64,000 bases of DNA from Gemmatimonadota bacterium (GCA_029863245.1 JAOTVV010000003.1:82591-146590); one strand, 5' to 3'. Shown: positions 32,475 to 49,292, numbered from the stretch's first letter. Program-made: numbers and translations. Notes: generated by a model not told the origin, from the sequence alone.

Positions 32475-33067
32475 TCTCGATGGTCCTCCACGAGCTCCGG
32501 GTGTCGCTCCAGCATGCGGCCGCGGATCGCCTGACGGGCGCGGAACAGGTGCGCGCGAACCGTGTTGGGGTTCATCACGAGCAACACGCTCACCTCGAGC
32601 GGAGTCATGCCCTGCAGGTCCACCAGATCGAACACCTCCCGCTGCATCCGGGGCAGATCCCGAAACAGCGCCATGATCGCGTCCACCGTGTCGGCGCTCT
32701 GCATCGCGTCGACGGGGTCGGGCGGCTCGACCACAGTCCGGTTCCCCTCGTGGGCCGCCCGCTCGGCGAGCTTCGTGCGACGGCGGTGTCGCCGCTGATG
32801 GTCGATGACGAGGTTCCGCGTCACCTGATACAGCCACGTTGTGAATCGCGACTGAAACCGGTAACGACCGAGATCGGCGTGAAGCCGGACAAGCACGTCC
32901 TGCGCGACGTCGTCGGCCTCGTCGGGATGCCCCGTCTGGGCCAGCGCCCAGCGGTACACCCGTGCATGGCACTGCCCGACCAGATCGTTGAAGGCATGTC
33001 GGTCTCCGGCCTGGGACCGTCTCACCAGAGGTTCCAGCAGCGCGTTGAGCTGTTCGAGCCCGCTCAC
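32471..33067 (-). CDS. ECF-type RNA polymerase sigma-70 family factor
   Basis: GTG 33067, 198 aa. Region 2 (DDVAQDVLVRLHADLGRYRFQSRFTTWLYQVTRNLVIDHQRR) and region 4 (MTPLEVSVLLVMNPNTVRAHLFRARQ). Confidence 0.85.
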   Translation of the reverse strand: MSGLEQLNALLEPLVRRSQAGDRHAFNDLVGQCHARVYRWALAQTGHPDEADDVAQDVLVRLHADLGRYRFQSRFTTWLYQVTRNLVIDHQRRHRRRTKLAERAAHEGNRTVVEPPDPVDAMQSADTVDAIMALFRDLPRMQREVFDLVDLQGMTPLEVSVLLVMNPNTVRAHLFRARQAIRGRMLERHPELVEDHRE

Positions 33068-33100
33068 GGGTGATCCCGGTCCGCCCTCATTCCGATCATG

Positions 33101-33128
33101 AGACGTCTGAGCGGGCGATGGCGTTTAC
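33101..33128 (-). promoter_or_regulatory. candidate ECF-type promoter (GTAAAC-N17-CGTCT) upstream of the sigma gene
   Basis: On the minus strand, GTAAAC (33128-33123), a 17-nt spacer, then CGTCT (33105-33101), about 35 nt upstream of GTG 33067. It resembles the AAC / CGT ECF promoter architecture. Confidence 0.3.
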
Positions 33129-33174
33129 AGCAGAGGCCCCGCGACTGGAATGCTGGCCGCGGGGCAACGGAAGG

Positions 33175-33259
33175 GGTGAAACGTGAAGCACAAAATGTGG
33201 GCTGTTGAGCAGCGGTGAGCTGGACAAGCTCGTTCACACCTCACACTTCACGTTTCACC
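33175..33259. repeat. perfect 14-bp inverted repeat with 57-nt spacer
   Basis: GGTGAAACGTGAAG (33175-33188) and CTTCACGTTTCACC (33246-33259), in the intergenic region between the apbE stop and the ECF sigma start. Confidence 0.7.
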
Positions 33260-33290
33260 TTTTCTCGCGTTTGGGTCATTCTGCTAGCCG

Positions 33291-34277
33291 TTACACCACC
33301 TCCACGCCTTCTCTCGACCGTCGAAGCAGCGCCTCGGCCGCGACACCTGGCAACCCGAACACCGCGGTGGCCGCTGCATCGGCCGCGAGACACGATGGGC
33401 CCCGGACGGTGACGCTGTGCACCGCCGTCACGCGCGGCGCCCCGGTCGAGGGATCGAGCAGGTGATGGTACACGCGGCCGCCGTACCGGAAGGCGCGCAG
33501 ATAGTCACCCGATGTGGCCACGGCGGCGTCACTTACCCGGATCTTTCCCGACAGCATCCCGGGATTCTCCGGAGACCGGATACCGACGGTCCACGCGTCG
33601 CCGTCCTCCGAGGTGCCGAGCGCGTAGAGATCCCCACCGACGTTCACGAGACCACGGCGTATGCCCCATTCGCGCAGGGCCGCTACCGCACGATCCACAC
33701 CGTACCCCTTGCCGATGCCACCGAGGTCGATTGCCACGTCGGGATCGGTGAACCGTACCCGAGCCATAGTGCCGCTGCGATCGAGGTCCAGTTCTCGATA
33801 CAGTGCTCGGCCCGCGAGGCGCCCAACGTCCCCAGCGGCTGGCGGCGCCGATCGGTGCTCCACGTCCCACAGCGCCGCCGCCCCCCCGAGACACGGATCG
33901 AATCTGCCATCGCTCGTTTCGGCCCACTGCAGGGCGTTGGCCAAAACGAATCCGGTCTCGTCAGATACCGCCACGGCATCGCGGGCCGCCGACGCATTGG
34001 CCCGACCCACGTCAGACGTGGCCGTGAAGCGCGTCAACAGGCGCTCGGTGCGCCGCAGCTCAGCAAACGCCGCATCGATGGCCGCGTGGGCGTACGCGGG
34101 GTGGGCATGCACCACGCCGACCTCCGCGAGGGTGCCCATGACGGGGACTGTCCGCCGTATCAGACGAGACCGCCGTGCTCGGAGGAAGGGCACGGCGCTC
34201 ACTACGAAGGCGCCGACGCCGAGCGCGATCACCTCGCGCCGAGTGGGGTGACGCTCGGGAGAATTATCCTGTTCCAT
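33291..34277 (-). CDS. apbE: FAD:protein FMN transferase (ApbE family)
   Basis: ATG 34277 (MEQDNSPERHPTRREVIALGVGAFVV, Tat-like RR leader). ApbE motifs VMGTLAEV and IDLGGIGKGYGVDRA. Last gene of the rnf operon. Confidence 0.85.
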   Translation of the reverse strand: MEQDNSPERHPTRREVIALGVGAFVVSAVPFLRARRSRLIRRTVPVMGTLAEVGVVHAHPAYAHAAIDAAFAELRRTERLLTRFTATSDVGRANASAARDAVAVSDETGFVLANALQWAETSDGRFDPCLGGAAALWDVEHRSAPPAAGDVGRLAGRALYRELDLDRSGTMARVRFTDPDVAIDLGGIGKGYGVDRAVAALREWGIRRGLVNVGGDLYALGTSEDGDAWTVGIRSPENPGMLSGKIRVSDAAVATSGDYLRAFRYGGRVYHHLLDPSTGAPRVTAVHSVTVRGPSCLAADAAATAVFGLPGVAAEALLRRSREGVEVV

Positions 34278-34440
34278 GCGAAGTCTCCGATTGCTCGTGG
34301 AGCAACTCACACATATTGCAGTCGTGGCCATCGGACTTGAGCCCGCACGAGCCGCAGCGGTCCTGATGACCCTTGCGGTTCATCAGGCCGAACACGATCG
34401 CCAGCACAGCGAGTCCGAGGATGCCAAGTGCTTCGTTCAT
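34264..34440 (-). CDS. 58-aa single-TM Cys-rich peptide, NqrM (DUF539)-like maturation factor candidate
   Basis: Not in the ORF track because it is under 60 aa. My translation is MNEALGILGLAVLAIVFGLMNRKGHQDRCGSCGLKSDGHDCNMCELLHEQSETSHGTG. Its ATG sits in an ATGA overlap with the rnfA stop, and its end overlaps the apbE start by 14 nt. Confidence 0.55.
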   Translation of the reverse strand: MNEALGILGLAVLAIVFGLMNRKGHQDRCGSCGLKSDGHDCNMCELLHEQSETSHGTG

Positions 34441-35015
34441 GACGAGCTCAACAGACCGGCGAAGCCCATGAACGCCAGCGATAGGCTCCCCGCGATAATC
34501 AGCACCAGCGCCATTCCCTTGGCGAGGGCCGGGACGTCAGCCATCTCGCTCGATTCGCGAATCGACGCCATCAGCACCAGAGCGAGTGTCAAACCGAGCC
34601 CGCCGCCGACGGCGAAGAACAGCCCTTCAAGGAGGTTGTAGCCTCGATTGGTCTGGAAGATCGCGAGCCCGAGAATGGCGCAGTTCGTGGTGATGAGCGG
34701 CAGGTAGATCCCAAGCTGCCGGAACAGCACGGGGCTCACCTTCTTGATCACCATCTCGACGATCTGTACTAGCGAGGCGATCACCACGATGAACGAGATC
34801 AGCCGAAGGTACGGCGCGTAGGGTAAGATGAAGGTGTTCAGGAACCACGCGCACACCGATGCGATCACGAGCACGAAGATGTCGGCCAGTCCGAGGCGCA
34901 GAGCCGTGGAGACGCGCGCCGACACTCCCATGAACGGACACAGTCCGAGGAAATAGGCGAGGGTGAAGTTGTTCACCACCATCGCGGAAAGCAGGATCCA
35001 GACCAGCTCGCCCAT
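34437..35015 (-). CDS. rnfA: Rnf electron transport complex subunit A
   Basis: ATG 35015, 192 aa. VNNFTLAYFLGLCPFMGVS and LPLITTNCAILG are collinear with RnfA/RsxA. Confidence 0.9.
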   Translation of the reverse strand: MGELVWILLSAMVVNNFTLAYFLGLCPFMGVSARVSTALRLGLADIFVLVIASVCAWFLNTFILPYAPYLRLISFIVVIASLVQIVEMVIKKVSPVLFRQLGIYLPLITTNCAILGLAIFQTNRGYNLLEGLFFAVGGGLGLTLALVLMASIRESSEMADVPALAKGMALVLIIAGSLSLAFMGFAGLLSSS

Positions 35016-35674
35016 CACGCCGCCTCCTCCCGTGCACCCACGCCGTGCGGCCACTCACGCACGCGTGCGCGCTCCACCCGGCGCTTCTCGATCCATCCGA
35101 ACAGGAGCAGCCAGAAGCCGAGGGTGAGAAAGCCACCGGGCGGCAGTATGAAGATGACCCACGGCTCGAACGGGCCGGGAATGACCTTCATACCGAGTAG
35201 CGCGCCGGTGCCGAGGATCTCGCGGATCGACCCCATCATCACCATCGCAATGATGAAGCCGAACCCGGTGCCGAAGGCGTCCAGCAGTGATCGGCCGACG
35301 GGGTTCTTCGAGGCAAAAGCCTCCTGCCGGCCCAGTATCATGCAGTTCACCACGATCAGCGCGACAAAGGCTCCCAGCGCCTTGTGGATGTCGGGGACCA
35401 GTGCCTCGAGCGTCATGTCGGCCACCGTGACGAACGTCGCGATGATCAGGATGTACGTCGATATCCGCACCTCTCCGGGCACCGCCTTCTTCACGATCGA
35501 CACGAGCAGGCTCGATCCGGTGAGCACGAAGAACGTCGCGATTCCCATGACGAGCGAGTTCTCAAGGGTGTTGCTCACTGCCAAGGCCGGGCACAGGCCC
35601 AGCATCTGGATCAAGACCGGGTTCTCGCGCCAGATACCGCGGAAGAAATCCTGTTGCGGCGACGTCTTGCTCAT
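35015..35674 (-). CDS. rnfE: Rnf electron transport complex subunit E
   Basis: ATG 35674, 219 aa. NPVLIQMLGLCPALAVS and ALIVVNCMILGRQEAFA are RnfE/RsxE-like. Confidence 0.9.
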   Translation of the reverse strand: MSKTSPQQDFFRGIWRENPVLIQMLGLCPALAVSNTLENSLVMGIATFFVLTGSSLLVSIVKKAVPGEVRISTYILIIATFVTVADMTLEALVPDIHKALGAFVALIVVNCMILGRQEAFASKNPVGRSLLDAFGTGFGFIIAMVMMGSIREILGTGALLGMKVIPGPFEPWVIFILPPGGFLTLGFWLLLFGWIEKRRVERARVREWPHGVGAREEAA

Positions 35675-36351
35675 TGCGCGACCTCCGCACTCTGGGGACC
35701 CGTCGCGGCAGCCTGATACGACTCGAGCATCGGCCCCATCCGTTGGAGCGCGTTGTTGATGATCTTGATGACCGTGCGGGACGAGATGGTGGCGCCCGTG
35801 ATCATGTCCACTTCGTGCGGGTCTCCCGTGCTTTGACGGGGCTTCACCCCCGTGAGCGGTGTCTGGACACCGTCGAACTGCGACACGAAGTCCACGTTCT
35901 TCTCGATCTTGTCGCCGAGCCCCGGGGTCTCCTTGCTCTCGAGCACCTTCATGCCCAGGAGCGTCTGCGTCGCGTGGTCGTAGCCGAAGATGAGCCGCAC
36001 GACGTCCTGAAACCCAGGCTCGCCCGACGCGATCGCAAACCCGATAGGGGAGCTGTCGGCGTGATACCCGAAGTAGATCTGCTCGAGCTTCTTCGGGTCG
36101 GCATCGGCCGGCAGCTGACGCGTGAGCGTCCCCTGATAGACGTAGAGAGTATCGTAGTGATCGGGTGCTTTGAGCACCTCTTGGATCGCCGCGGCAAGGC
36201 GCTCGGCCCGGTTGCGCTCGATGGTGGGGAGCGTGGCTTGGTAGACGAACACCAGGACGAACCCCGCGAGGGCACCGGCAAGTCCCAGGGTCACCAACAG
36301 GCGCCACGCCGGGACGTCGGGCTTTGGCTGAAACTGCGCGGGGGCGCTCAT
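35671..36351 (-). CDS. rnfG: Rnf electron transport complex subunit G (FMN-binding)
   Basis: ATG 36351, 226 aa. N-terminal TM anchor and the flavinylation motif DMITGATISSRTV. Confidence 0.85.
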   Translation of the reverse strand: MSAPAQFQPKPDVPAWRLLVTLGLAGALAGFVLVFVYQATLPTIERNRAERLAAAIQEVLKAPDHYDTLYVYQGTLTRQLPADADPKKLEQIYFGYHADSSPIGFAIASGEPGFQDVVRLIFGYDHATQTLLGMKVLESKETPGLGDKIEKNVDFVSQFDGVQTPLTGVKPRQSTGDPHEVDMITGATISSRTVIKIINNALQRMGPMLESYQAAATGPQSAEVAQ

Positions 36352-37352
36352 TCCGTCACCTTCACCGCGGCGCGCGTTCCGAACACTCTGGGTTGCGTAG
36401 CGCGGTTGATGAATGGCACCATCGCGTTCATGAGCAGGATGGCGTACATCACCCCTTCGGCGAGCCCGCCCCACAGCCGGATGACCACCACCAGCACCCC
36501 GATACCGACGCCGTAGAGCCAGCACCCGCGGTTGGTGACCGGCGAGGTCACCATGTCGGTGGCCATGTAGACCGCGCCGAGCATGAGGCCGCCCGAGAAC
36601 AGCATGAACAGCGCGCCCGGAAAGGCGGGGTTGAGCCAGTGCGTGAGCGTGGCAAGCGCCGCGACGGTGAGGAAGATGCTGATCGGGATGCGCCAGTTCA
36701 GGTAGTTCCGCCACGCCAGGTACGCACCGCAGAGCAGAATCAGGATGCCTGCCGTCTCGCCCAGCGAACCGCCGGTGGCACCGATCATGAGCTTGCCCAG
36801 TTCCGTGCTCTGCTGCTCGAACTTCATGAGTCCGAGCGGCGTAGCGCTGGTGAGCACGTCCACCTCGCCGGGACTCATGAGGGGCAGCGCCAGATTGTCG
36901 CCCCGGAGCGCCCACCAGTTCTCGCGAATCACGGGCCACGTGGTGAGCGCCACGGGGAACGCCGCCTGCAGGAACGCCCGGCCCAGCAGCGCCGGGTTGA
37001 AGATGTTCTGACCCAACCCGCCAAAGATGAGCTTGCCGAACCCAATGGCGAACGCGCCGCCCACGAAGGCCATCCACATCGGGAGTCCGGCCGGCAGGCA
37101 GAGGCCGAGCAATAGGCCCGTGATCACCGCAGAGCCGTCGAACAGCGTCTCCCGGCTTCCGAACAGCCATTCGGTTGCGAGACACCCCGCGAGGGCCGCC
37201 ACGATGACCAGTACGGCGCTCGGGCCGAAATAGTAGATGGCCGCCACGATCACCGGGATGAGCGAGACGTTCACCGTCCACATGATCCGCGGCGTACTGT
37301 CGCGCTCGGCCAGGTGCGGCCACGCGGTGATGAGCAGGCGTGGCGCCGTCAT
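36348..37352 (-). CDS. rnfD: Rnf electron transport complex subunit D
   Basis: ATG 37352, 334 aa, polytopic. GQNIFNPALLGRAF and the flavinylation-type motif LTSATPLG. Confidence 0.9.
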   Translation of the reverse strand: MTAPRLLITAWPHLAERDSTPRIMWTVNVSLIPVIVAAIYYFGPSAVLVIVAALAGCLATEWLFGSRETLFDGSAVITGLLLGLCLPAGLPMWMAFVGGAFAIGFGKLIFGGLGQNIFNPALLGRAFLQAAFPVALTTWPVIRENWWALRGDNLALPLMSPGEVDVLTSATPLGLMKFEQQSTELGKLMIGATGGSLGETAGILILLCGAYLAWRNYLNWRIPISIFLTVAALATLTHWLNPAFPGALFMLFSGGLMLGAVYMATDMVTSPVTNRGCWLYGVGIGVLVVVIRLWGGLAEGVMYAILLMNAMVPFINRATQPRVFGTRAAVKVTE

Positions 37353-38689
37353 GCAGCCTTGGGCTTGGGTGGCTGCCGCTTGAGCTGGTTCTTCGCCAGT
37401 GCGAACAGCTGAGTGAGCGGGATATTGGACGGACAAGTGTAGCCGCAGCAGCCGCACACCATGCAGTCCATCAGGTGGTTCTCCACCATCTCGTCGTACC
37501 GGTCGTGCATGGCTAGCTGCCCGAGGAGCTGCGGGTTGAGAAACACGGGACACGCGTCGAGGCAGTGCCCGCAGCGGATGCACGGGTACGAGTGCTGGGA
37601 CTTCACCTCGGCGCCGGTGAGCGCGATGACCCCGGTCGTGCCCTTGGTGATCGGCACGTCGAGGCTGGCCTGCGCTGCACCCATCATGGGACCACCGAAC
37701 ACGATCTCGCGCGCCGTCTCGGTGAGGCCGCCGCACGCATCGAACACATCGCGCACCTTGGTGCCGACCGGCACGATCAGGTTTGCAGGCCGACGCACGC
37801 CGGGACCGGTTACCGTCACGATCCGCTCGATGAGCGGCAGGCCCGTCTCGAACACCTCCGCGATGGTTGCCACCGAGGCCACGTTGTGGACGACCACGCC
37901 CACGTGCATCGGCAGTCTGCCCGACGGCACTTCGCGGCCGAGCAGCGCCTTGATGAGCATCTTCTCGGCCCCCTGTGGGTACTTCACCGTGAGGCCGTGA
38001 ATGGTGACGTGTCCTTCCAGGTCGTCGGGGAGCGTCGCCCGCAGGCGTTCGATGGCGTCCGGCTTGTTCTTCTCGATGCCCACCATCACGCGATCCGCCC
38101 CGATCGTCTTCATCATGAGCCGGATGCCGAGATGCACGCGCCCGGGGTATTCCACCATGGTGCGGTGATCGGTCGTGAGGTACGGCTCGCACTCGCACCC
38201 GTTGATGACGATCGTGTCGATGGAGACGTCGTCGGGCGGGACGAGCTTGACGTGGGTGGGGAAGGCGGCACCGCCCAGGCCGACCACGCCGGCTTGCCGG
38301 ACCGCATCCACGAGCTGCTTGCGGTCCAGGCCACGCCAGTCGGGGATGATCCGTTTCCGCGGTACCTGGGCGTCGTATGGGGCCACGGCAATCCGGATCG
38401 CATCCTGGTAGCCGCCTGTCGGGTGCGGCCACAGCTCGATCGCCGTCACGGTCCCGGCCGCCGAGGTGTGGATCGGCGACGAGATGAACCCGTCGGCTTC
38501 GGCCACCTTGTCACCGCGCTCCACGCGGTCACCTATTCGGACAATGGGCACGGCCGGCTTCCCCGTGTGCTGACTGAGCGGCAGCACGATCTCGTCGGGG
38601 AAGGGCAGCCGGCGGACAGGAATCGCAGCCGTGAGCTGTTTCAGCTCCGGCGGGTGCACCCCGTGGCGGAACCGCATTCGCTTCGCCAT
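37349..38689 (-). CDS. rnfC: Rnf electron transport complex subunit C
   Basis: 446 aa. NADH-binding region GLGGAAFPTHVK and two 4Fe-4S motifs, CIRCGHCLDACP and CMVCGCCGYTCP. Confidence 0.9.
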   Translation of the reverse strand: MAKRMRFRHGVHPPELKQLTAAIPVRRLPFPDEIVLPLSQHTGKPAVPIVRIGDRVERGDKVAEADGFISSPIHTSAAGTVTAIELWPHPTGGYQDAIRIAVAPYDAQVPRKRIIPDWRGLDRKQLVDAVRQAGVVGLGGAAFPTHVKLVPPDDVSIDTIVINGCECEPYLTTDHRTMVEYPGRVHLGIRLMMKTIGADRVMVGIEKNKPDAIERLRATLPDDLEGHVTIHGLTVKYPQGAEKMLIKALLGREVPSGRLPMHVGVVVHNVASVATIAEVFETGLPLIERIVTVTGPGVRRPANLIVPVGTKVRDVFDACGGLTETAREIVFGGPMMGAAQASLDVPITKGTTGVIALTGAEVKSQHSYPCIRCGHCLDACPVFLNPQLLGQLAMHDRYDEMVENHLMDCMVCGCCGYTCPSNIPLTQLFALAKNQLKRQPPKPKAA

Positions 38690-38696
38690 GAATCGC

Positions 38697-41600: not shown

Positions 41601-43718
41601 GTACGCCTCAATGTCGACCGGCTCCACCTCGTCGTAGCCGCGACGGATGACGCGGACATTGTCCTCCACCACCCGCTCCCCAAGGTGACCGAACTTCTTC
41701 TGCAGCTGCTTGCGGATCCCCTCGAACAGTTGCTGCTCCTCGAGGCCTTCGCGCTCGGCCAGGCCGGAGACGCGGAAGAAGGCGCCCATGAAGGCCGCGC
41801 CCTGCATCCGGTACCGCAGCTCCGCGTCCGACGCCTCCTCCATCGCGATCTTGAAGGCATCCAGGCTGAAGAGCCGGATCTTCCGGTCCTTGATGGTCTG
41901 CTGTGCCTCGGCGGGCAGGCTGTGCCACAGGTCCTCCGCGCTGCGATCGCTCTGGAGAATGAACACGCCGTCGGGCGCGAGACCGGCCAGCGGGTCGGAG
42001 TTGCGGAACACGTTCGGATCGGGCGAGAGCACCACGTTGACATGCTTCAGCTCGCAGTTGAGCCGGATGGGCTCGTGCGCCAGCGTGGTGTAGAACGTGG
42101 TCGGCTGGCCCTTCTTTTCCGAGCCGTACTTCGGGTTGGCCTTGATGTACATCCCCATCAGCTCGGAGGCTGTCATCGCCAGATTCTTGCCCATCGTGAT
42201 CGCGCCCCAGCCGCCGACGGAGTGAATGCGGATGGAGGTCGCGCCCTTGGGCAGGAGGTTCACGTTTTCCGTGGGGAGGAGCGACAGATTGGCCACCTCG
42301 GGATACGCTGCAAGCAACTCGTCCTGCCAAATCTGGAGCTTGGGCAGCTTGGTGCCCACCCGCACGAAGTCGATGCCGAGATAGTACTGGCGCTGCTTCT
42401 TCCCGCCGTCGAGCATGTTGTCCACGGCGGCGATGAGATCGGCCGGCTGGAGGTCGCGGCTACCGAGGCCGAAGGTCCCGGAGTAGAATGCCGGTGCGTC
42501 GCCCGGGCCGTACGCGGCGATGCCAGCGAAGGGCAGCTTCCCGTTACCCGCCACGCCGTTCTCCATCGCCTTGTTCACGGCGGCACGAATCTCCCGCAGG
42601 ATCGGCTGGTCCACTGCGAGCGGCTGGTCCACGCGCTCGAGCACCGCCACGGCCTTCTTGCCCTTCAGCAGATGCGTGATGAGGTCGGCCGGGAATGGCC
42701 GGAACATCGTGACGTTGAGCACGCCGAATTTGACCCCGCGCGTCTCGCGCAGGTAGTCGCACACCGCCTCGGCATTGGGGATGAGCGAGCCCTGGCCGGC
42801 GATCACGTATTCCGCATCGTCCAGCCTATACCCCATGGTGCGGGCATACTGGCGGCCCGTGAGCACGGCTAGCTCCGCCATCGCCTGGTCGGTGAACTCC
42901 GCGACGTGGTCGAAGTAGAACGGACGCTGCGCTGCCACGCCCTGCTGGTAGCTGTCCTGGTTCTGGACGACGCCCAGCATGGCGGGGTAGTCGAGGTCGA
43001 ACATCTCCGGAATGCGTCGCCGCTTCTCGCCGAACACCCACCGCTGCGCCGGCGTGGGTGAGTCGATCAGATCGGCTGGGTCGCCGAGGAACTCCTTCAC
43101 TAACTCCCGCTCTGGAAGCGTGATCGACTCGATCACATGGGTGGTGAGGAACCCGTCCTGCGCCAAAATCCCCGGGTTGAGCGACAGTTCGGCCACGCGG
43201 TGCGCGATCAGGTTGAGATCGGCCGACTCCTGCGCGTCCTTGGCGAACAGCTGGAAGAAGCCCGTGTCGTCCACCGCGTGATAGTCGTCGTGGCCGGCGT
43301 GCACGTTGAGCGCGTGCTTGGTCATGGCGCGCGCGCCGATGTTGAGCACGTAGGTGAGCCGCTTGCCCACGGCGGCATACAGCGACTCGTGCATGTACGC
43401 GATGCCCTGCCCACTCGAGAAGTTGGCAGCACGCAGCCCGACCATGCTCATGCCGGCGGTCACCGCCGCGGCGGCGTGTTCGCCCTCGGGCTCGAAGAAC
43501 AGCAGCCGACGGCCATGCACGTTGGTCTGACCTGCGGCGACGGCCGCAGCCCAGCCCTCGCCCATCTGCGTGGACGGCGTAATCGGATACGCGCCGGCTG
43601 CCTCGCTTCCCGCGGTCTCCATGTCCACGACGGCTTGCGTGCCGTCGACGGCCATGGGTATGCCAGGGTACTTCGGCTGCTCGGGAGGTTTGGGATTCGA
43701 TTTGCGCTTGAACATCAT
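38697..43718 (-). CDS. pyruvate:ferredoxin (flavodoxin) oxidoreductase-like 2-oxoacid oxidoreductase, single-chain, 1673 aa, with C-terminal ferredoxin-like domain
   Basis: ATG 43718 in an ATGA overlap with the rnfB stop. It has a PFOR domain I (YPITPSTQMGEGW), a gamma-like domain, two 4Fe-4S motifs (CTGCGQCWVQCPDAAI and CKGCNICVHVCPDEAL), the TPP motif GGDGAMLDIGF...NTGGQ, and an extra C-terminal CTSCEECIKV...CPVRIIHPG module. Confidence 0.9.
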   Translation of the reverse strand: MMFKRKSNPKPPEQPKYPGIPMAVDGTQAVVDMETAGSEAAGAYPITPSTQMGEGWAAAVAAGQTNVHGRRLLFFEPEGEHAAAAVTAGMSMVGLRAANFSSGQGIAYMHESLYAAVGKRLTYVLNIGARAMTKHALNVHAGHDDYHAVDDTGFFQLFAKDAQESADLNLIAHRVAELSLNPGILAQDGFLTTHVIESITLPERELVKEFLGDPADLIDSPTPAQRWVFGEKRRRIPEMFDLDYPAMLGVVQNQDSYQQGVAAQRPFYFDHVAEFTDQAMAELAVLTGRQYARTMGYRLDDAEYVIAGQGSLIPNAEAVCDYLRETRGVKFGVLNVTMFRPFPADLITHLLKGKKAVAVLERVDQPLAVDQPILREIRAAVNKAMENGVAGNGKLPFAGIAAYGPGDAPAFYSGTFGLGSRDLQPADLIAAVDNMLDGGKKQRQYYLGIDFVRVGTKLPKLQIWQDELLAAYPEVANLSLLPTENVNLLPKGATSIRIHSVGGWGAITMGKNLAMTASELMGMYIKANPKYGSEKKGQPTTFYTTLAHEPIRLNCELKHVNVVLSPDPNVFRNSDPLAGLAPDGVFILQSDRSAEDLWHSLPAEAQQTIKDRKIRLFSLDAFKIAMEEASDAELRYRMQGAAFMGAFFRVSGLAEREGLEEQQLFEGIRKQLQKKFGHLGERVVEDNVRVIRRGYDEVEPVDIEAYGVSQDVVIPPPQMPAMLDGSKVRAGIGNPGRFWEQVCYLYKTGDDGIADPFAALSAIPAATSTIRDMTDVRFEVPEFIAEKCTGCGQCWVQCPDAAIPGLVNEVEEVLDTAIRFVSNGRSLDRLRQITKHLGNESRKIMKGVPFTTFGAVLSEAYKTVVDKMKLDPERRAALDAEFAPVYAVLEDFPLAKTTAFFDLPEGREKNTGGLLSITVNPDACKGCNICVHVCPDEALITVKQTDEIVDKLRKDWKLWELLPDTNDRYVNVSDIEEGIGVLSSLLLKKETYRSMAGGDGACMGCGEKTVVHLVLSAVNALMMPRVKRHIAELDELIAGLDAKARTLLAADADLNAVDVAGGKADLTLDDEQKQAVARIRTMLDDLRDLRWRYVEGPTGKGRSVMAMTNATGCSSVWGSTYPFNPYPFPWVNHLFQDAPSIAIGIFEGHMRKMADGFVAVRRAELELAEEYDPAVHEPFFTRFEWRQFSDKEFDLCPPIFATGGDGAMLDIGFQNMSRLLASGKPIRVMVLDTQVYSNTGGQACTSGFTGQVSDMAAYGAAQHGKEETRKELALIAMAHRNVFVLQASQANPSHLLAGVLKSLQSRYPSVLALHCPCPPEHGVGDDQAPDAAKLMLESRAYPVLVYDPAEGYTMAERLSLDGNPSIDDTWPSYDLKYVDENGQEQMMELPVTTADWAATEARFKKHFKRVRGDFDEDSMMPFHEFLTASPEDREGKTPFIYLLRPDRTLGRVAVSSEMVQLAEDRLHVWSLLKEMAGLAVDVSAEAEQEFEAQAAQIKAEYEARIADLKQKYPQLVAHRLAEGLVRAGNGQRTIAELLSEVQAMPIQPLKLDVGGLSLDTGPAVAPAPRGGGAAVATAAVAAPAVEEEEGLALEPYIDTARCTSCEECIKVNKKMFVYDDKKQAYIKDPKAGTFKELVTSAERCPVRIIHPGTPLNPKEKDLEKWMKRAEPFN

Positions 43719-44566
43719 GCAACCGCCTTCTCGAGAGGCTGTGCGGACGCTTGGAACTGCGCGCCCTCGACCCAGACGATGGCGCCGGTCGGGCATCGCG
43801 CGATGGCCGACACGTCCGCCAGATCGTTCTTGCTGTAATCCACCACCGCCAACCCGTCCCTGATCTCGATGAGCCCGGGCGCGGCGTCCGCCACGCACCG
43901 CTCGCAGGCGGTGCAGGCCACCCGGCACAGGGCTTCGATCTCGTCACCTTCCAACGCGCTCTTGCACTGCACAATCAGTTTCTGCTCGATCGGCATGAGC
44001 ACGAACAGATCCTTCGGGCACGCGTCCACGCAGTCTCCGCACGCGGTGCACTTGTCCGGGATGACTACGGGAATGCCATACTGGTTCATGTAGATCGCGT
44101 CGAAGTCGCACGCGACCTCGCAATCGTCGAGACCGAGGCACCCCCAGCGACAGCCCTTGCCGCCGCCGGCCACGGCTGCTGCGGCCTTGCACGTGTCGAG
44201 CCCCAGATAGTCGGCCTCCTGCACCGCCACGTTGCTCCCGCCGGCGCAGAGGAGCCGCGCCACCCGCTTGTTCGCTTCGCCCGCTTCCACCCCGAGGAAC
44301 TGCGCCATCGAGAGCACGTCGTCAGCACCCATCACCGTGCAGGTAGCGGGCTGGATGCGGCCCAGCACCACACCCTCGGCGAACGCGCGGCACCCCGCCT
44401 CGCCGCAGGCGCCGCAGTTGGCGCCCGGCAGCATGTCGGTCACCGCGTCGATCCGCGGATCCTCCCACACCTTGAACTTCCAGTGCGTGAGCGCGATCGC
44501 CGCGGCGAACGTGAGGCCCACGCCACCCAGGATGGCGACCGAGAGCAGAATGGTGGTGATGCTCAT
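43715..44566 (-). CDS. rnfB: Rnf electron transport complex subunit B
   Basis: ATG 44566, 283 aa. N-terminal TM helix, the CGACGEAGC Fe-S region, and ferredoxin motifs CTACGDCVDACP and CTACERC. Confidence 0.85.
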   Translation of the reverse strand: MSITTILLSVAILGGVGLTFAAAIALTHWKFKVWEDPRIDAVTDMLPGANCGACGEAGCRAFAEGVVLGRIQPATCTVMGADDVLSMAQFLGVEAGEANKRVARLLCAGGSNVAVQEADYLGLDTCKAAAAVAGGGKGCRWGCLGLDDCEVACDFDAIYMNQYGIPVVIPDKCTACGDCVDACPKDLFVLMPIEQKLIVQCKSALEGDEIEALCRVACTACERCVADAAPGLIEIRDGLAVVDYSKNDLADVSAIARCPTGAIVWVEGAQFQASAQPLEKAVA

Positions 44567-44576
44567 CCACGCGCTC

Positions 44577-45596
44577 CTAGATGTCCGACAGGTTGGCCTG
44601 CGACAGGAGCCACGCAGCGAGCTTGTCGACCGGATCGGCGGGTGCGGCTGGCGTGACCGGAGTCGCCGACGCGTCCGTCCCCACCGCCGGCCTCGTTCCA
44701 ACCGTGATGTCCGCCAGTGACCGCAGTTGCCGGATCTCCTCAGCCTGCTGGGACCCGCTCCGGCCGCCAACAGACATCTTCGGCTCGGTCGCGGGCAGAT
44801 GCTCCACCGTCAAGCGACCGGCCAGGTGCAGCCCGCCCTTGGGATCGTGAACGAACCGTGCGGCCGACTCGGGGACCAGGGCGCCGATGCCCGGACCGTC
44901 GTGCGTTGCCAGCCGGTCCAAGCCCGTGCCATCGTGGGTTTGGATGACGAAGGTGCCCGGCGTGATGAGCCGCACCAGCGGGGCGGGGGAGCAGGCCCCA
45001 CGCACGACCAGCACGATCTTCTGCGATCCATCCAGGAAGTCCGTGAGCATTTCGGCGCGCAGATCGGCACCGTCGACCGCCACCACCAGTGGGGGCGCGA
45101 GCCGGCGTTCTCCTTTGCTCCATTTCTGGAAGGGGAACGATCCCAGTGAGCGCGCGTGCTCGTTGCCGCGATAGCTCCCCGACCGCGTCAACTCGAAGAT
45201 CCGCACAGCCCCGAAGGCGCGTCCAATCTCCTCGAGTGCCTTCGCAACAGCGGTCCGGAGGTCGCCGCCCGGATTCACTTTCACCAGGAAGAGATCATGA
45301 TTGCGCTGCGACAGTTCGTTCATCGTGTCGCGCGCTTTCTCGATCGTCTCGACGGTGAGCGTGTCGAGCTTCAGCGAGCCTCCGAACAGCTTGGCCAGCC
45401 GGTCGGTGTCGAAGCGATCGGCCGCGAACGGTCCCAGCTCGGCAGCCACGCGGTTCACGCCGCCGTTCTGGGACTGCCGATGCTCGGCGAGGAACGTCTG
45501 CACCTGCTCGACGGTCGTGCCCAGCGCCGACCGGAACGCATCCCGCTGCCCAGCCAGCGCCGTCAGAGCGAGCTCCACTCGGTCGTCAGAGGGCAT
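44577..45596 (-). CDS. hypothetical protein (339 aa), no family recognised
   Basis: ATG 45596 overlaps the korB end by 11 nt. Its stop is 10 nt before the rnfB start, with AGGAG in between. Predicted soluble with a helical N-terminus. No metal or cofactor motif was seen. Confidence 0.6.
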   Translation of the reverse strand: MPSDDRVELALTALAGQRDAFRSALGTTVEQVQTFLAEHRQSQNGGVNRVAAELGPFAADRFDTDRLAKLFGGSLKLDTLTVETIEKARDTMNELSQRNHDLFLVKVNPGGDLRTAVAKALEEIGRAFGAVRIFELTRSGSYRGNEHARSLGSFPFQKWSKGERRLAPPLVVAVDGADLRAEMLTDFLDGSQKIVLVVRGACSPAPLVRLITPGTFVIQTHDGTGLDRLATHDGPGIGALVPESAARFVHDPKGGLHLAGRLTVEHLPATEPKMSVGGRSGSQQAEEIRQLRSLADITVGTRPAVGTDASATPVTPAAPADPVDKLAAWLLSQANLSDI

Positions 45597-46539
45597 AAGT
45601 GTCAAGCTCCGCATTGAGGATGGCGATCTTCTCGTCCGCCGTCTTGGGGGATACCCTCCGGACCTCCTCGTACACGGGCAGATCGTCATTCCGGTAAAAC
45701 ACGCCAAGCCGGATCTTGTCATCGAGCTGAGCCAGCCGAAATGCGTTCACGAGGTCCGCGGGATCGTGATAGACCTCGTTCTTGTAGATCTGCTTCAGCG
45801 CCGGCACGTCGACACCGTCGGGGTGGACCAAGAGCTCGATCGTGTTGGAATCGCGCATGGCGTTGAGGTACAGCTGGTCCGTGTACTGGGGACACCGCTG
45901 CAGGATGCGTACGAACGAGAACCCCCGATGCTCGTAGGCCGCCTTCAGCACGGCGTAGATGTGATCGGGCACCCAGTCGCCGGTCTGCGCCACGAACGAG
46001 GCGTTCTCCACACCGAGGGTCGTCGCGATCGGGTTCATCCCTTCGAGGAACGCGCCTTTGGGCTGCGTGTTGCTCCGCACGCCCTTTGGGCTCGTGGGCG
46101 ACGTCTGGTTCTTGGTGAGCCCGTAGACGCCGTTGTCGAGCATGAGGGCCACCATGTTGGGGTTGTAGCGCGTGGTGTGGATCCAGTGTGCCGCCCCGAT
46201 GGAGCAGCAGTCTCCGTCGCCCATGACCACGAACACCTGCAGCTCGGGCCGCCGCAGCTTGATACCGGTCGCCAGCGGTAACGCCCGGCCGTGGAGGCCG
46301 TGGAAGCCGTACGAGTTGATGTAGTGGGGAAACCGGCTCGAGCAGCCGATGCCCGAGACGAACACCGTCTCTTCGGGCGGGAGCTGCAGGTCGGCCAGGA
46401 AGCGTTGCACGGCGGCGAGCACGGCGTGGTCACCGCATCCCGAGCACCAGCGCGCGGTCGCCGCCTGGTAGTCGTCCATCTCCCAAGAGCGGTCGTCGGC
46501 TATCGCGCTGCCAAGCAGTGAGCATCCGAGTTGAATCAT
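45586..46539 (-). CDS. korB: 2-oxoacid:ferredoxin oxidoreductase beta subunit (KorB-like, TPP-binding)
   Basis: 317 aa. WCSGCGDHAVL and the TPP motif VMGDGDCCSIGAAH...DNGVYGLTKNQ. Confidence 0.9.
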   Translation of the reverse strand: MIQLGCSLLGSAIADDRSWEMDDYQAATARWCSGCGDHAVLAAVQRFLADLQLPPEETVFVSGIGCSSRFPHYINSYGFHGLHGRALPLATGIKLRRPELQVFVVMGDGDCCSIGAAHWIHTTRYNPNMVALMLDNGVYGLTKNQTSPTSPKGVRSNTQPKGAFLEGMNPIATTLGVENASFVAQTGDWVPDHIYAVLKAAYEHRGFSFVRILQRCPQYTDQLYLNAMRDSNTIELLVHPDGVDVPALKQIYKNEVYHDPADLVNAFRLAQLDDKIRLGVFYRNDDLPVYEEVRRVSPKTADEKIAILNAELDTYAL

Positions 46540-46541
46540 GA

Positions 46542-48458
46542 TCAGGCTCCCTTGGGCATGTGTGCCCGGATCGCCTCGTGGATCTGGCCCGGGCGCAGCG
46601 GATGGCCGGGCACCCGGGTCCAGCAGTCCACATCCACCAGTGTCGTGGCGCGCAGCAGCCAGGCGAGCTGGCCGCGGCGGCGGTTCTCATCGGTGATGTA
46701 GGGCGCGTTGGGGTCGTCGGAGTAGTTGACCTCCACCGTCATCACTTTCGTGAACCGGTTGAAGATCTCCTTGAGCCCCGGCTCGAGCGGGGAGAGGAAT
46801 CGGAGGTGGAGCGACGAGACCGCGAGCCCTTCTTCGCGTGCCCGGTCCACCGCTTCCTCGATGGCGCCAATCGTGCTGCCCCACCCGACGACCAGGAGAT
46901 CGCCGTGATCGACCCCATAAACTTTGGGCGGTCTCAGTGATTGCTGGAACACGGCCATCTTGCGCGCCCGCATCTCACAGCCGCGCTCGTGCACGTCGGG
47001 GCTGTAGGCGATCTTGCTGTCTTCGTCGTGTGACAGCCCCGTCGCGCGGAACATCCCGTTCTGACGACCCGGAATGATGCGGGCCGACAGGCCGGTCTTG
47101 GGATCCCAGTCATATGGTTTCTGGCCATCGGGCACAGGGCTCAGGTCGAGCGGCGCCGCGATCCAGTCGCGGGTCACGTTGGGCCGCGGGAATGGCTGGA
47201 CACCGGTGGCTAGGTTCGCGTCCGAAAGGACCATCACCACGCAGCGGAACGCCTCGGCGATGCGGCGGGCCGTGATCATGCAGAGGAAGCACTCCTCCAT
47301 GGTCGCCGGCGCCATCACCACCTTGGGTGCGTCGCCGGGCTGGCCCCAGATGGCCGCGAGTAGGTCCGACTGCTCGATCTTGGTGGGGAGTCCCGTGCTC
47401 GGTCCGCCGCGCTGCACGTCCACCAGCACGAGCGGCGTCTCGGTCATGACGGCGAGCCCGATGAACTCGGTTTTGAGCGCCAGACCCGGCCCGGACGTGA
47501 TGGTGAAGGCCACCTTGCCGGCGAACGAGGAGCCGATCGCGACGCCCACGGCGGCGATCTCGTCTTCGGCCTGGTGCACGATGCCACCATAATTCTCGAA
47601 GATCTCGCTCAAGTGGTGCGACGCCGACGTGGCCGGTGTGATGGGGTACATGGCGCACAACTCCATGCCCGACGCCACCGCACCCATGGCGATCGCCTGG
47701 TTCCCGTTCATCACCACCATGGGCACCGGCGGGGGCTCAATCGGCACGTCGACCGTGAAGTCGAGGTTCGCCTCGGCCCACGCATGCCCGAGATCGAGCA
47801 GGGCCAGGTTGGCGTCGATCACCGCTTGGGACTTCTTCCGGAATTCGACCTCGATCTGCTCCCGAATGAGATCCAGGTTGCGGGAGTAGATGTTCGCCAG
47901 CATCCCGAGGACGAACATGTTCTTCCCCTTGCGGGGATTGTCGACCACCGTGAGGCACTGCTCTTCCATCGGCACCTTGATGAAGCGGTAGCGCTTGCCG
48001 CTCATCTCCTCCATGGCCGCCGCCCACTCCTTGCGGATATCCTCGTCGTCGTGGGCTTCCCACATGCTCTCGATGAGCACGGCACAGTCGTCGTTGAGCG
48101 CGTTTGCGCGGTGGCGGTGGAGCAGCACCTGCTCGTTGAACGCCACCACGAGGTGGGCGGCATCGCCCCAGTTCGTCACCGGCTTGGTGCCGATGCGTAC
48201 CCGGTTCCCGCTGGTGCTGGGCGGGGTGCGCGGTGGGGGCTGGATCTCGGCCGGGATGATCTCCACGGTCCAGACGCCGTTCCCCATCTTCGCCGACACG
48301 CGGCCAAAGGTCTGGGCGCACTTCTGCGCGCCCTCGCCGGGGTCGGAGACCACCTCGACGGTGTGCTCGGCGACTTTGATGATGCTCTTGTTCTGGGGGG
48401 ACGGCGTCTTGGCCTTCTTCTTCTTCGCGGCGGGTGCCGCGGCGGATGAACTGGCCAT
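46542..48458 (-). CDS. korA: 2-oxoacid:ferredoxin oxidoreductase alpha subunit (KorA-like, fused gamma-alpha)
   Basis: ATG 48458 (MASSSAAAPAAKKKKAK...), about 638 aa. The N-terminal POR-gamma-like part is followed by YPITPATSASHHL of the alpha domain. Confidence 0.9.
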   Translation of the reverse strand: MASSSAAAPAAKKKKAKTPSPQNKSIIKVAEHTVEVVSDPGEGAQKCAQTFGRVSAKMGNGVWTVEIIPAEIQPPPRTPPSTSGNRVRIGTKPVTNWGDAAHLVVAFNEQVLLHRHRANALNDDCAVLIESMWEAHDDEDIRKEWAAAMEEMSGKRYRFIKVPMEEQCLTVVDNPRKGKNMFVLGMLANIYSRNLDLIREQIEVEFRKKSQAVIDANLALLDLGHAWAEANLDFTVDVPIEPPPVPMVVMNGNQAIAMGAVASGMELCAMYPITPATSASHHLSEIFENYGGIVHQAEDEIAAVGVAIGSSFAGKVAFTITSGPGLALKTEFIGLAVMTETPLVLVDVQRGGPSTGLPTKIEQSDLLAAIWGQPGDAPKVVMAPATMEECFLCMITARRIAEAFRCVVMVLSDANLATGVQPFPRPNVTRDWIAAPLDLSPVPDGQKPYDWDPKTGLSARIIPGRQNGMFRATGLSHDEDSKIAYSPDVHERGCEMRARKMAVFQQSLRPPKVYGVDHGDLLVVGWGSTIGAIEEAVDRAREEGLAVSSLHLRFLSPLEPGLKEIFNRFTKVMTVEVNYSDDPNAPYITDENRRRGQLAWLLRATTLVDVDCWTRVPGHPLRPGQIHEAIRAHMPKGA

Positions 48459-48838
48459 CACACTCTCGCTCGAACTCGTGGTCGTGTGAAGGTCGAGGAG
48501 TCCGGGCGGAGCTCGGCTCGGCACCGAGAGGCAAACCACCACCTCAGCGGAGAGCCGACCAACAGCTCCTCCACCCCTCCCGACCGTCTATGCGGTAGGT
48601 GGTCCGACCGGCGGGACGCAGCGCCGTGGCGCTCGCGCAGCTGATCCTGTCAGAATTCCACTCACCGCTGCTCAACCAACAATTCTAATAGGAATGGGGC
48701 ACGGGAGGGGAAAGACGGGATGAAGAGGTCTTTACAAGACGTTGTGCTACTTGGGGTTTGGGGATATTCGTGCCCACGGTCCGCCCGCCAGGAGCTCTCG
48801 CTCAGGGACGGATCAATGACCACCGAATCGGTTGTCGA

Positions 48839-48926
48839 CGGACAGGGTGGGATTCGAACCCACGGAACCCTTGCGAGGTTCACACGCTCTCCAGGCGTGT
48901 GCCTTCAGCCGCTCGGCCACCTGTCC
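48839..48926 (-). tRNA. tRNA-Ser (anticodon GGA)
   Basis: The minus-strand sequence GGACAGGTGGCCGAGCGGCTGAAGGCACACGCCTGGAGAGCGTGTGAACCTCGCAAGGGTTCCGTGGGTTCGAATCCCACCCTGTCCG folds as follows. Acceptor GGACAGG/CCTGTCC. Anticodon stem CACGC/GCGTG with loop CTGGAGA. Long variable arm. T-loop GGTTCGAATCC. No encoded CCA. Confidence 0.9.
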
Positions 48927-49292
48927 CTGTGAAGCTAAACGGAAGAAGTAAAGCAAGTTACGGTGAAGGGGTCAACCCTGGCGTTGTGCGCTGGGGTCGA
49001 TTGAATCGAGCCGAATCCACGCGACGTGTTCGCCGAAGGCCCGACGCTGCACGAGCGCGCGCATTCGGTCGTCGTCCGGCTGATAGCACGCCAGCAGGGT
49101 CGTGCAGTCCTTCTCCGCAAGCACGCGAGGACCTTGGCGGTAGTTTTGACCGCCATCGCCAGCGTCCGACGGAGTCTGTGCCCAACGTGCTCCCGCGGGA
49201 AGTGTGATCGCGGCGCGACTGGGGCGGGCGCCCGGCTCTGCCAACAAGGCGCCGGGCGCGCGCTGGACCTGCGTATGGTAGATAGTGAGTAT

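Follow-up and report, generated by a model that had tools for sequence, protein, structure and literature searches.

Does a 15-kb stretch of minus-strand genes in a 64,000-nucleotide Gemmatimonadota bacterium sequence (GCA_029863245.1 JAOTVV010000003.1:82591-146590; "the window" below) really join two 2-oxoacid:ferredoxin oxidoreductases to a complete Rnf ion pump, and if so is this arrangement particular to one genome? The original prediction, made from the sequence alone, described twelve genes at positions 33291-48458 that run head to tail, and proposed that they form one expression unit. All twelve open reading frames were found, and they have the codon-position GC signature of real genes in this 66% GC genome, with GC3 values of 0.81-0.88. 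The gaps (+) and overlaps (-) between them, in the order korA, korB, X (an unknown 339-aa protein), rnfB, long PFOR, rnfC, rnfD, rnfG, rnfE, rnfA, 58-aa peptide and apbE, are +2, -11, +10, -4 (ATGA), +7, -4, -4, -4, -1, -4 and -14 nt, exactly as originally listed, except that the AGGAG before rnfB overlaps the TAG stop codon of X rather than lying wholly inside the 10-nt gap.

The rnf-like genes were identified with Pfam and NCBIfam models as follows, and for every subunit the Rnf models score better than the Nqr models: rnfC (37349..38689, 446 aa, the NADH/FMN-binding subunit) scores 523 bits with TIGR01945 against a cutoff of 246 and also matches RnfC_N, Complex1_51K and SLBB; rnfD (36348..37352, 334 aa) scores 302 against 207 with TIGR01946; rnfG (35671..36351, 226 aa) scores 111 against 102 with TIGR01947 and matches FMN_bind; and rnfE (35015..35674, 219 aa) scores 229 against 213 with TIGR01948. 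The rnfA gene (34437..35015, 192 aa) is marginal, with a TIGR01943 score of 226.8 that is just under the cutoff of 229.3, but it scores 179 bits with the Rnf-Nqr Pfam model. The rnfB gene (43715..44566, 283 aa, 20 Cys) matches the PF04060 FeS domain and Fer4 domains and scores 72 against 69 with TIGR01944. It is of the long polyferredoxin type, the closest solved chains being 9eri_B (E=1e-54) and 7zc6_B, while the short 8ahx_B matches only weakly. The sequence motif DVLTSAT in RnfD is a candidate flavinylation site, DMITGAT is present in RnfG, and apbE (33291..34277, 328 aa, FAD:protein FMN transferase) scores 233 bits with PF02424. The cluster thus resembles the Rnf complexes of the anaerobes Acetobacterium woodii and Clostridium tetanomorphum (PDB 9eri, 7zc6) in its six subunits, its long RnfB and its ApbE partner; however, the known rnf operons described in a 2025 RNF/NQR review (PMC12174285) carry no oxidoreductase gene, and "PFOR" does not occur in that text.

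Two genes upstream of rnfB encode a two-subunit 2-oxoacid:acceptor oxidoreductase of the KorAB type. The korA-type alpha subunit (46542..48458, 638 aa, fused gamma+alpha) scores 511 bits with TIGR03710 against a cutoff of 483, matches the Pfam models POR, POR_N and PFOR_II, and is closest among solved chains to 6n2n_A (E=7e-78). The korB-type beta subunit (45586..46539, 317 aa, thiamine-diphosphate binding with a single [4Fe-4S] cluster) matches TPP_enzyme_C and PFO_beta_C, retains Cys32, Cys35, Cys66 and Cys216, and scores 243.6 with TIGR02177, just under its cutoff of 261.9. Only subfamily-level models pass for KorA, so the name korAB (2-oxoglutarate) is a substrate guess. The fused gamma-alpha subunit, the beta subunit with one cluster and the lack of a delta ferredoxin are shared with the Magnetococcus 6n2n and Sulfurisphaera tokodaii 5b46 enzymes and apparently with KorAB of Mycobacterium and Thauera; here, however, korB is translationally coupled to the uncharacterised protein X and to rnfB.

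Between rnfB and rnfC lies the gene for a PFOR-like protein of 1673 aa (38697..43718). It has domains I, II, III, V and VI in the same order as the homodimeric PFORs of Desulfovibrio africanus (1b0p) and Moorella thermoacetica (6cin), and its cofactor motifs are intact: YPITPS, the substrate Arg (Arg130), the GDG...N thiamine-diphosphate motif and all 12 Cys of three [4Fe-4S] clusters. It nevertheless scores only 414 bits with the PFOR equivalog model TIGR02176, far below the cutoff of 911, so pyruvate is also a substrate guess that rests on a few conserved pocket residues only. It is about 500 aa longer than those enzymes, and against PDB PFORs it matches in 5 pieces, leaving insertions at about 396-473, 807-908, 1017-1104 and 1350-1673; three are internal, including about 100 aa between the two cluster motifs of the ferredoxin domain, and the last is a roughly 320-aa C-terminal extension that ends in a tethered extra ferredoxin. 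This single-cluster domain (38754..38936; Cys1602, 1605, 1608 and 1644-Pro) matches Fer4_13 (E=3e-6) and ferredoxin I of PDB 1dax (E=1.5e-5), and its Cys are invariant in the alignments examined (A1 and A3), although Foldseek gives only weak hits to [3Fe-4S]/[4Fe-4S] ferredoxins and the AF2 confidence for the domain is only about 62. It is preceded by an Ala/Pro-rich linker of variable sequence (38937..39086, about residues 1545-1594) that is predicted to be disordered (AF2 pLDDT about 30).

Two genes in the cluster match no Pfam family. X (44577..45596, 339 aa) has no Pfam or NCBIfam hit; its AF2 model (pLDDT 81) has a helical bundle, an alpha/beta domain, a disordered Ala/Pro linker and a conserved C-terminal amphipathic helix (DPVDKLAAWLLSQA), and gave no Foldseek PDB hit at E<0.001. 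It contains only one Cys. More than 1400 homologues were found, all "hypothetical", in 594 representative clusters that are mostly about 315-375 aa with a few longer (up to 457 aa) and with no clear fusion. X starts with MPSD(D/E)R like all its homologues, which supports the chosen start codon. The 58-aa peptide (34264..34440) has an N-terminal transmembrane helix followed by a Cys-rich tail (CGSCG...C..C), and an equivalent small ORF (transmembrane helix plus 3-6 Cys) sits right after rnfA in 44 of the 47 loci examined, in all phyla sampled. Its position next to apbE at the 3' end of the structural genes resembles that of NqrM in Na+-NQR operons, where a small single-transmembrane protein also has a Cys-rich cytoplasmic tail (PMC12174285), but the suggestion in the original prediction that it is an Fe maturation factor is an analogy that the NqrM HMM does not support; no Pfam family passes, and some orthologues give only a sub-threshold FeoB_associated match.

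Are these twelve genes transcribed together? A consensus scan of positions 31000-50000 found 0 promoter-like and 3 terminator-like sites, where 1.9 and 7.8 were expected from shuffled sequences. There is therefore no sign of internal punctuation, but this is a weak test for this phylum, internal promoters inside coding sequence cannot be excluded, and a single transcript is inferred from gene spacing only. Directly after the apbE stop codon are two stable hairpins (33136..33259, minus strand; -95.5 kcal/mol, z=-4.75, including a 25-bp stem) whose 14-nt arms GGTGAAACGTGAAG occur only here in the window, and these are the likely 3' end of the unit. Upstream of korA (48459..48926, minus strand), ARAGORN and Rfam detect a tRNA-Ser(GGA) at 48839-48926, which is followed by about 380 nt of non-coding leader. 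The promoter presumably lies in this region, although no sigma-70 consensus was found and the fold of the leader is not unusual (z=-1.5).

The above arrangement is not unique to this genome. Among the 80 best related loci, rnfC directly follows the long PFOR gene in 53 of the 56 with enough flanking sequence, rnfCDGEA is complete in 47 of 49, rnfB is directly upstream in 55 of 66 (and otherwise lies just downstream, in Bacteroidota), and korAB lies upstream in 39 of 53. The loci span at least seven phyla, with taxa that include Gemmatimonadota, Acidobacteriota, Planctomycetota, Rokubacteria, Myxococcota, Gammaproteobacteria and Bacteroidota, and they include the cultured Ectothiorhodospira magna and Algoriphagus kandeliae. 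The long PFORs are about 1640-1720 aa and 51-85% identical across phyla. Translational coupling is also conserved: the 11-nt korB/X overlap is present in 37 of 39 loci, and rnfB/PFOR overlaps in 8 of the 9 loci where both ends could be scored. The placement of KorAB differs between lineages; it is upstream in one group of loci (clade 1), in most of which apbE follows rnfA and the peptide, downstream of rnfB in Algoriphagus, and divergent in one other locus. In 14 of the 20 loci of a second group (clade 2) a ferredoxin-NADP-reductase-like gene follows the peptide. Conserved order and intact catalytic motifs contradict a fortuitous juxtaposition or decaying genes with no joint function, for which we found no evidence. 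The original prediction did not recognize the layout as a described system, and our literature searches agree in that we found no paper describing it.

We favor, with moderate confidence and without expression, protein-interaction or activity data, the following explanation. The twelve genes would be one functional unit in which the long PFOR-like enzyme oxidizes pyruvate, or a similarly small 2-oxoacid, plus CoA, and passes electrons through its three [4Fe-4S] clusters to its own C-terminal ferredoxin domain, which hangs on the roughly 50-residue flexible linker and acts as a swinging arm that delivers electrons to RnfB. This would recall the lipoyl domains of 2-oxoacid dehydrogenase E2, which also sit behind long, disordered Ala/Pro-rich linkers, except that the carrier is an Fe-S ferredoxin and that its mobility is predicted. 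Rnf would then reduce NAD+ at RnfC and export Na+ or H+. In the Gemmatimonadota-type version KorAB, which has no ferredoxin domain of its own, would feed the same acceptor, and X is probably an adaptor or scaffold for this link. ApbE would attach FMN to RnfD and RnfG, and the peptide probably helps to mature the membrane Fe-S center, by analogy with NqrM.

Could the operon instead merely co-express physically independent enzymes that communicate through a free ferredoxin or flavodoxin pool, with the C-terminal ferredoxin domain being an internal wire or an oxygen-protection element like domain VII of Desulfovibrio PFOR? Synteny alone does not prove contact, PFOR and Rnf work through free ferredoxin in all characterized systems (PMC12174285), and KorAB placement varies (above), so this remains possible, but we consider it less likely. 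The PFOR gene sits inside the rnf gene set across phyla, often with overlapping stop and start codons, a ferredoxin on a roughly 50-residue disordered tether is hard to explain as an internal wire, and no separate ferredoxin gene is present in the cluster.

The overall reaction is close to equilibrium by textbook potentials and so is reversible, and we take the oxidative, energy-conserving direction as the default; the original prediction's alternative, in which Rnf runs in reverse, also has support. In that reading, Rnf would use NADH plus the ion gradient generated by aerobic respiration to reduce the tethered ferredoxin, and the long PFOR and KorAB would act as pyruvate synthase and 2-oxoglutarate synthase, assimilating acetyl-CoA and succinyl-CoA with CO2 for anaplerosis or mixotrophy in nominal heterotrophs. 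Most carriers look like aerobes or facultative aerobes, largely of non-fermenting lineages, and in such organisms the known Rnf roles (Azotobacter, Rhodobacter, E. coli Rsx) run in the ferredoxin-reducing direction (PMC12174285); the 6n2n relative of KorA is probably a CO2-fixing, reverse-TCA 2-oxoglutarate synthase; a DabAB inorganic-carbon pump lies just upstream of the cluster in Algoriphagus kandeliae; and exactly this role was proposed for an unlinked Rnf, PFOR and KFOR in Ignavibacterium (PMC3362086). On the other hand, the DabAB adjacency occurs in only 1 of 80 loci, RnfB is the long type of anaerobes, whose Rnf complexes oxidize ferredoxin (PMC12174285), rather than the short Azotobacter/Rhodobacter type, no rnfH is present, the ferredoxin-NADP-reductase-like partner in clade 2 fits ferredoxin oxidation better than generation of very low-potential ferredoxin, and no other reverse-TCA genes lie in the 64-kb window. 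We consider the reverse direction the less likely of the two, but the direction remains open.

The Fpr-like gene in the clade-2 clusters and an ECF sigma factor gene that lies 224 nt downstream in the window might also suggest a redox-stress or NADPH-supply system like E. coli YdbK-flavodoxin-Fpr or Rsx-SoxR, YdbK and Rsx seemingly being tied to oxidative stress. This is very doubtful, as there is no SoxR-like or flavodoxin gene in the cluster, the sigma factor gene is separated from it by the strong hairpins (above), and a full six-subunit pump with ApbE and two large oxidoreductases, about 15 kb, is a heavy investment for a stress circuit.

If the favored explanation is correct, the net result would be an ion-pumping 2-oxoacid:NAD+ oxidoreductase that needs no free ferredoxin. 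The idea of a 2-oxoacid:ferredoxin oxidoreductase hard-wired to a pyridine-nucleotide reductase has parallels in the pyruvate:NADP+ oxidoreductase of Euglena and Cryptosporidium, which appears to be a PFOR fused to an NADPH-cytochrome P450 reductase module, and in the Azoarcus three-subunit NADP-dependent KorABC, and the clade-2 clusters even add an FNR-like gene. The link here, however, would be through a membrane ion pump and a tethered ferredoxin, not a fused flavoprotein, and it would therefore conserve or consume ion-motive force.

The window is about 66% GC, and all twelve minus-strand ORFs that the original prediction had assigned to one operon are present with the predicted ends. They have the high GC3 (0.81-0.88) of genuine genes in this genome, and the protein encoded by the PFOR gene is 100% identical to one already on record from a Gemmatimonadota MAG. 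The spacings of the eleven junctions, read directly from the sequence, are as follows: korA/korB, +2 nt; korB/X (X being the conserved 339-aa protein of unknown function), -11 nt; X/rnfB, +10 nt; rnfB/PFOR, -4 nt (ATGA); PFOR/rnfC, +7 nt; rnfC/D, D/G and G/E, -4 nt each; rnfE/A, -1 nt; rnfA/peptide, -4 nt; and peptide/apbE, -14 nt. These agree with the original prediction, and the only correction is that the AGGAG before rnfB, which had been placed inside the 10-nt gap, overlaps the stop codon of X.

Upstream of korA there is a tRNA-Ser(GGA) gene at 48839-48926 on the same (minus) strand, followed by about 380 nt of leader, and read-through from the tRNA promoter into the cluster is conceivable. 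A search of this region with Rfam found only the tRNA, and the leader fold is not remarkable (z=-1.5), so there is no indication of a riboswitch or structured leader. Beyond the tRNA gene a divergent SusC/SusD pair (a SusC-like TonB-dependent receptor and a SusD-like protein) starts at 49397 and is followed by three large FG-GAP/ASPIC-UnbV repeat proteins of 1132, 1135 and 530 aa; this stretch (49397-63989) resembles a polysaccharide-utilisation-like locus. Directly after the apbE stop codon lie two very stable hairpins at 33136-33259 on the minus strand (fold z=-4.75). The first is unusually large and perfect, with 14-nt exact arms GGTGAAACGTGAAG that are unique in the window and lie within a 25-bp stem whose loop contains two small hairpins, and the second is GC-rich; there is no T-run, so this is not a classical intrinsic terminator. 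An ECF sigma factor gene follows. A consensus scan found no promoter-like site and fewer terminator-like sites than shuffled sequence inside the cluster, which is compatible with a single unit but is a weak test and is uninformative for non-sigma-70 promoters. Elsewhere in the window, a cobalamin riboswitch at 19073-19256 on the plus strand (Rfam RF00174, 72 bits, E=7e-16) lies directly upstream of a plus-strand periplasmic-binding-protein gene at 19351-20220 (Peripla_BP_2, BtuF-like) and looks like the control element of an ordinary B12-regulated uptake gene. The stretches 1-17469 and 27387-30483 hold housekeeping genes (argS, a PfkB kinase, an AIR-synthase-like protein, ribD, ribBA, hprK, ptsI, metK, ahcY, clpB and a tRNA-adenosine-deaminase-like gene), none of which bears on the cluster.

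Pfam and NCBIfam profile searches identify a complete set of Rnf subunits. The scores in bits against the curated cutoffs are 523/246 for rnfC, 302/207 for rnfD, 111/102 for rnfG, 229/213 for rnfE and 72/69 for rnfB, while rnfA, at 226.8/229.3, is marginal and falls 2.5 bits short. Could these be Nqr genes instead? The Nqr models score far lower for every subunit and below their own cutoffs, and no NqrF-like gene is present, so this possibility was rejected. RnfB (283 aa, 20 Cys) has the FeS domain plus Fer4 domains and is of the long polyferredoxin type; it is closest to the solved RnfB chains 9eri (9eri_B, E=1e-54) and 7zc6 and only weakly similar to the short 8ahx subunit. RnfC has the RnfC_N, Complex1_51K and SLBB domains. 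RnfD and RnfG carry the motifs DVLTSAT and DMITGAT, respectively, which fit the probable covalent-FMN acceptor motif, DxxT(S/G)AT, and ApbE is a match to PF02424 that scores 232.8 bits against 25.6 and covers profile positions 1-264 of 266.

KorA passes the alpha subfamily model of the two-subunit 2-oxoacid:acceptor oxidoreductases (TIGR03710, 510.8 against 482.75), whereas KorB is slightly below the cutoff of the corresponding beta model (TIGR02177, 243.6 against 261.9); the Pfam domains of both nevertheless pass, and KorB has the four Cys of the single cluster. The nearest solved relative of KorA is 6n2n. No equivalog model passes (PRK09627 scores 198 against 579, and NF041170 scores 244 against 800), so 2-oxoglutarate as the substrate is a guess.

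The 1673-aa protein has PFOR domains I, II, III, V and VI in that order (POR_N, PFOR_II, POR, two Fer4 and TPP_enzyme_C matches), the YPITPS loop, the substrate arginine, the thiamine-diphosphate motif (GDG at 1204-1206 and N1238) and all twelve Cys ligands of three [4Fe-4S] clusters (Cys788/791/794/798, Cys924/927/930/934 and Cys1002/1005/1113/1244). The Thr of YPITPS, Arg130, Val139 (Ile in the reference) and Asn1238 align with residues that probably contact pyruvate in the D. africanus enzyme, although pyruvate as the substrate is only inferred. In spite of these features the protein reaches only 414 bits, in three stretches, against the 911-bit cutoff of the homodimeric PFOR equivalog model (TIGR02176), and at 1673 aa it is far longer than the approximately 1170-1230 aa, without extra redox domains, of that type. 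Alignment to solved PFORs, including 6cin, shows insertions at about residues 396-473, 807-908 (between the two CxxCxxCxxxCP motifs) and 1017-1104, and a C-terminal extension of roughly 320 residues. An AF2 model of this extension predicts a confident small domain, a 45-residue helix, a disordered Ala/Pro-rich stretch of about 50 residues (pLDDT about 30) and a single-cluster ferredoxin domain with the pattern CxxCxxC...CP. The ferredoxin assignment is supported by the Fer4_13 profile, by a match to PDB 1dax at E=1.5e-5 and by Foldseek hits to ferredoxins that are only weak; the domain at about 1370-1475 and the long helix match nothing.

The long PFOR belongs to a tight family. The 120 best database hits are nearly all 1645-1723 aa long and are annotated from Gemmatimonadota, Rokubacteria, Planctomycetota and Deltaproteobacteria, and mean column identity is 79% in a ten-sequence cross-phylum alignment. 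A scan of one genome per GTDB species found 527 relatives, from which the best 80 loci (numbered with the prefix L below) were fetched and searched by tblastn with the twelve window proteins. Among loci with enough flanking sequence, rnfC lies directly after the long PFOR in 53 of 56, rnfCDGEA is complete in 47 of 49, rnfB is directly upstream in 55 of 66, korAB is upstream in 39 of 53 and X is present in 38 of 53. Where rnfB is not directly upstream it lies a few genes downstream, as in Bacteroidota. The 11-nt korB/X overlap occurs in 37 of 39 loci, so translational coupling is itself conserved. Exceptions to the synteny are rare and look secondary: L053 has a truncated PFOR with no rnf genes within 10 kb, L051 has rnfB after the PFOR, and in L050, a Gemmatimonadota MAG, about 6.8 kb (15088-21923) is inserted between the long PFOR and rnfC. 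In L034 and L048 apbE is inserted between rnfG and rnfE instead of after rnfA, which shows that it is a mobile but persistent member of the cluster.

Two versions of the cluster exist. Clade 1 (60 loci, PFOR at least 59% identical) has the layout korA-korB-X-rnfB-PFOR-rnfCDGEA-peptide-apbE and is carried by Gemmatimonadota and some Acidobacteriota, Planctomycetota and Rokubacteria. Clade 2 (20 loci, about 51-53% identical) has the layout [rnfB]-PFOR-rnfCDGEA-peptide-(FNR-like gene)-[rnfB] and is carried by Bacteroidota, Gammaproteobacteria, Myxococcota and others. The FNR-like gene (NAD_binding_1, about 285-330 aa, 49-86% identical to the Algoriphagus copy) lies just after the peptide gene in 14 of the 20 clade-2 loci (L060, L063, L064, L066, L067, L071 and L073-L080, but not L072), and is absent from the window's clade. 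A conserved 119-aa protein of unknown function with no Pfam domain directly precedes the long PFOR in Bacteroidota clusters (L073-L077 and L079; for example L074 9605-9964). In Algoriphagus korAB follows rnfB, and the pairing of two oxidoreductases with Rnf therefore recurs in a different gene order.

Protein X has more than 1400 homologues, all annotated 'hypothetical' and without Pfam domains, which form 594 representative clusters. Most representatives are about 315-375 aa and a few are longer, up to 457 aa, but no clear fusion that might have hinted at function was found. Its AF2 model (pLDDT 81) predicts an N-terminal helical bundle, a central alpha/beta domain, a disordered Ala/Pro linker and a conserved C-terminal amphipathic helix, and Foldseek finds no solved fold at E<0.001. 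X has one Cys, so it is not an Fe-S carrier, and a relationship to the FNR-like protein of the clade-2 clusters was rejected (hhalign probability 0.4%). It is found only where korAB lies immediately upstream. The 58-aa peptide has equivalents right after rnfA in 44 of the 47 loci examined, in every phylum sampled, each with one transmembrane helix followed by a Cys-rich tail. This architecture, and a position next to apbE after the structural genes, are those described for the maturation factor NqrM (PMC12174285), but the NqrM profile (PF04400) gives no hit at E<=10 for the window peptide or at E<=1 for eight orthologues; the only resemblance is a sub-threshold FeoB_associated match in some orthologues (best E=2.8e-4, 21.5 bits against a cutoff of 27). 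We retain NqrM only as an architectural analogy, and the role of the peptide in Fe maturation that was suggested in the original prediction is inferred.

How might these proteins work together? PFOR-type enzymes reduce ferredoxin at about -500 mV. Rnf reversibly couples ferredoxin:NAD+ electron transfer to ion export, ApbE flavinylates RnfD and RnfG, and NqrM matures the membrane Fe-S centre of the homologous NQR (PMC12174285). From the anatomy of the cluster we infer that the long PFOR is the dedicated partner of this Rnf and that its tethered ferredoxin would shuttle electrons to RnfB, making an ion-translocating 2-oxoacid:NAD+ oxidoreductase. KorAB lacks a ferredoxin domain, so it would use the same acceptor, with X as an adaptor translationally coupled to korB. 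About 180 mV for two electrons against about two ions moved across 150-180 mV puts such a system near equilibrium, and its direction therefore depends on physiology. We lean toward the oxidative direction because RnfB is of the long type seen in ferredoxin-oxidising Rnf complexes and because clade 2 adds an FNR-like pyridine-nucleotide reductase. The reductive direction remains a serious rival, since the carriers are mostly aerobic lineages, the known Rnf roles in aerobes are ferredoxin-reducing, and KorA is nearest to 6n2n, which is apparently a reverse-TCA enzyme. In Algoriphagus kandeliae (L074) DabB and DabA, an inorganic-carbon pump, lie just upstream of the cluster at 3648-7688; this is suggestive of a link to CO2, but it is seen in only this one of the 80 loci and is thus anecdotal. 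The original interpretation, in which the oxidoreductases, the ion pump and its maturation factors look like one expression unit with two possible directions, is supported by these findings, although the substrates, the direction and a single transcript are still inferred.

Each of the better-known parts is a member or near-member of a known family (Rnf, ApbE, the two-subunit OFORs and the PFOR superfamily), while X and the peptide belong to no described family. In the literature searched, which does not cover most subscription journals and so cannot exclude a prior mention, and in a 2025 RNF/NQR review (PMC12174285), we found no description of a PFOR gene inside an rnf operon or of a PFOR with a tethered ferredoxin; genome papers on Ignavibacterium and Melioribacter mention extra unknown genes in rnfCDGEAB clusters but no PFOR there. 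The chemistry is not categorically new, and what appears to be undescribed is a conserved and widespread hard-wiring, as inferred here, of two well-known systems in unexpected organisms. It is possible, although we consider it less likely than not, that the long PFOR, KorAB-X and Rnf assemble into one membrane-bound supercomplex. This would be a previously unrecognised respiratory entry point that oxidises pyruvate and 2-oxoglutarate directly, passes electrons through a swinging-arm ferredoxin to RnfB and pumps ions while making NADH, and that, because it operates near equilibrium, could also run backwards to fix CO2 into pyruvate and 2-oxoglutarate. It would be widespread in aerobic and facultative soil and marine bacteria (Gemmatimonadota, Bacteroidota, Planctomycetota, Acidobacteriota and Gammaproteobacteria), where PFOR and Rnf are usually regarded as anaerobe equipment.

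Rnf and PFOR are textbook parts of anaerobic energy metabolism that communicate through free ferredoxin, and this cluster shows a conserved, cross-phylum version in which the oxidoreductase carries its own tethered ferredoxin and is encoded inside the rnf operon, in many cases in organisms considered to be aerobic heterotrophs. It also brings to light three uncharacterised conserved components, namely protein X (about 600 clusters, no known fold), the Rnf-linked Cys-rich membrane peptide and the PFOR insertions, and two cultured carriers, Ectothiorhodospira magna B7-7 and Algoriphagus kandeliae XY-J91, make its function directly testable. If the oxidoreductase and Rnf work as one machine, pyruvate (and 2-oxoglutarate) oxidation would yield about two extra translocated ions per turnover compared with the pyruvate dehydrogenase complex, and, run in reverse, the same machine would give 'heterotrophs' a gradient-driven route for CO2 assimilation.
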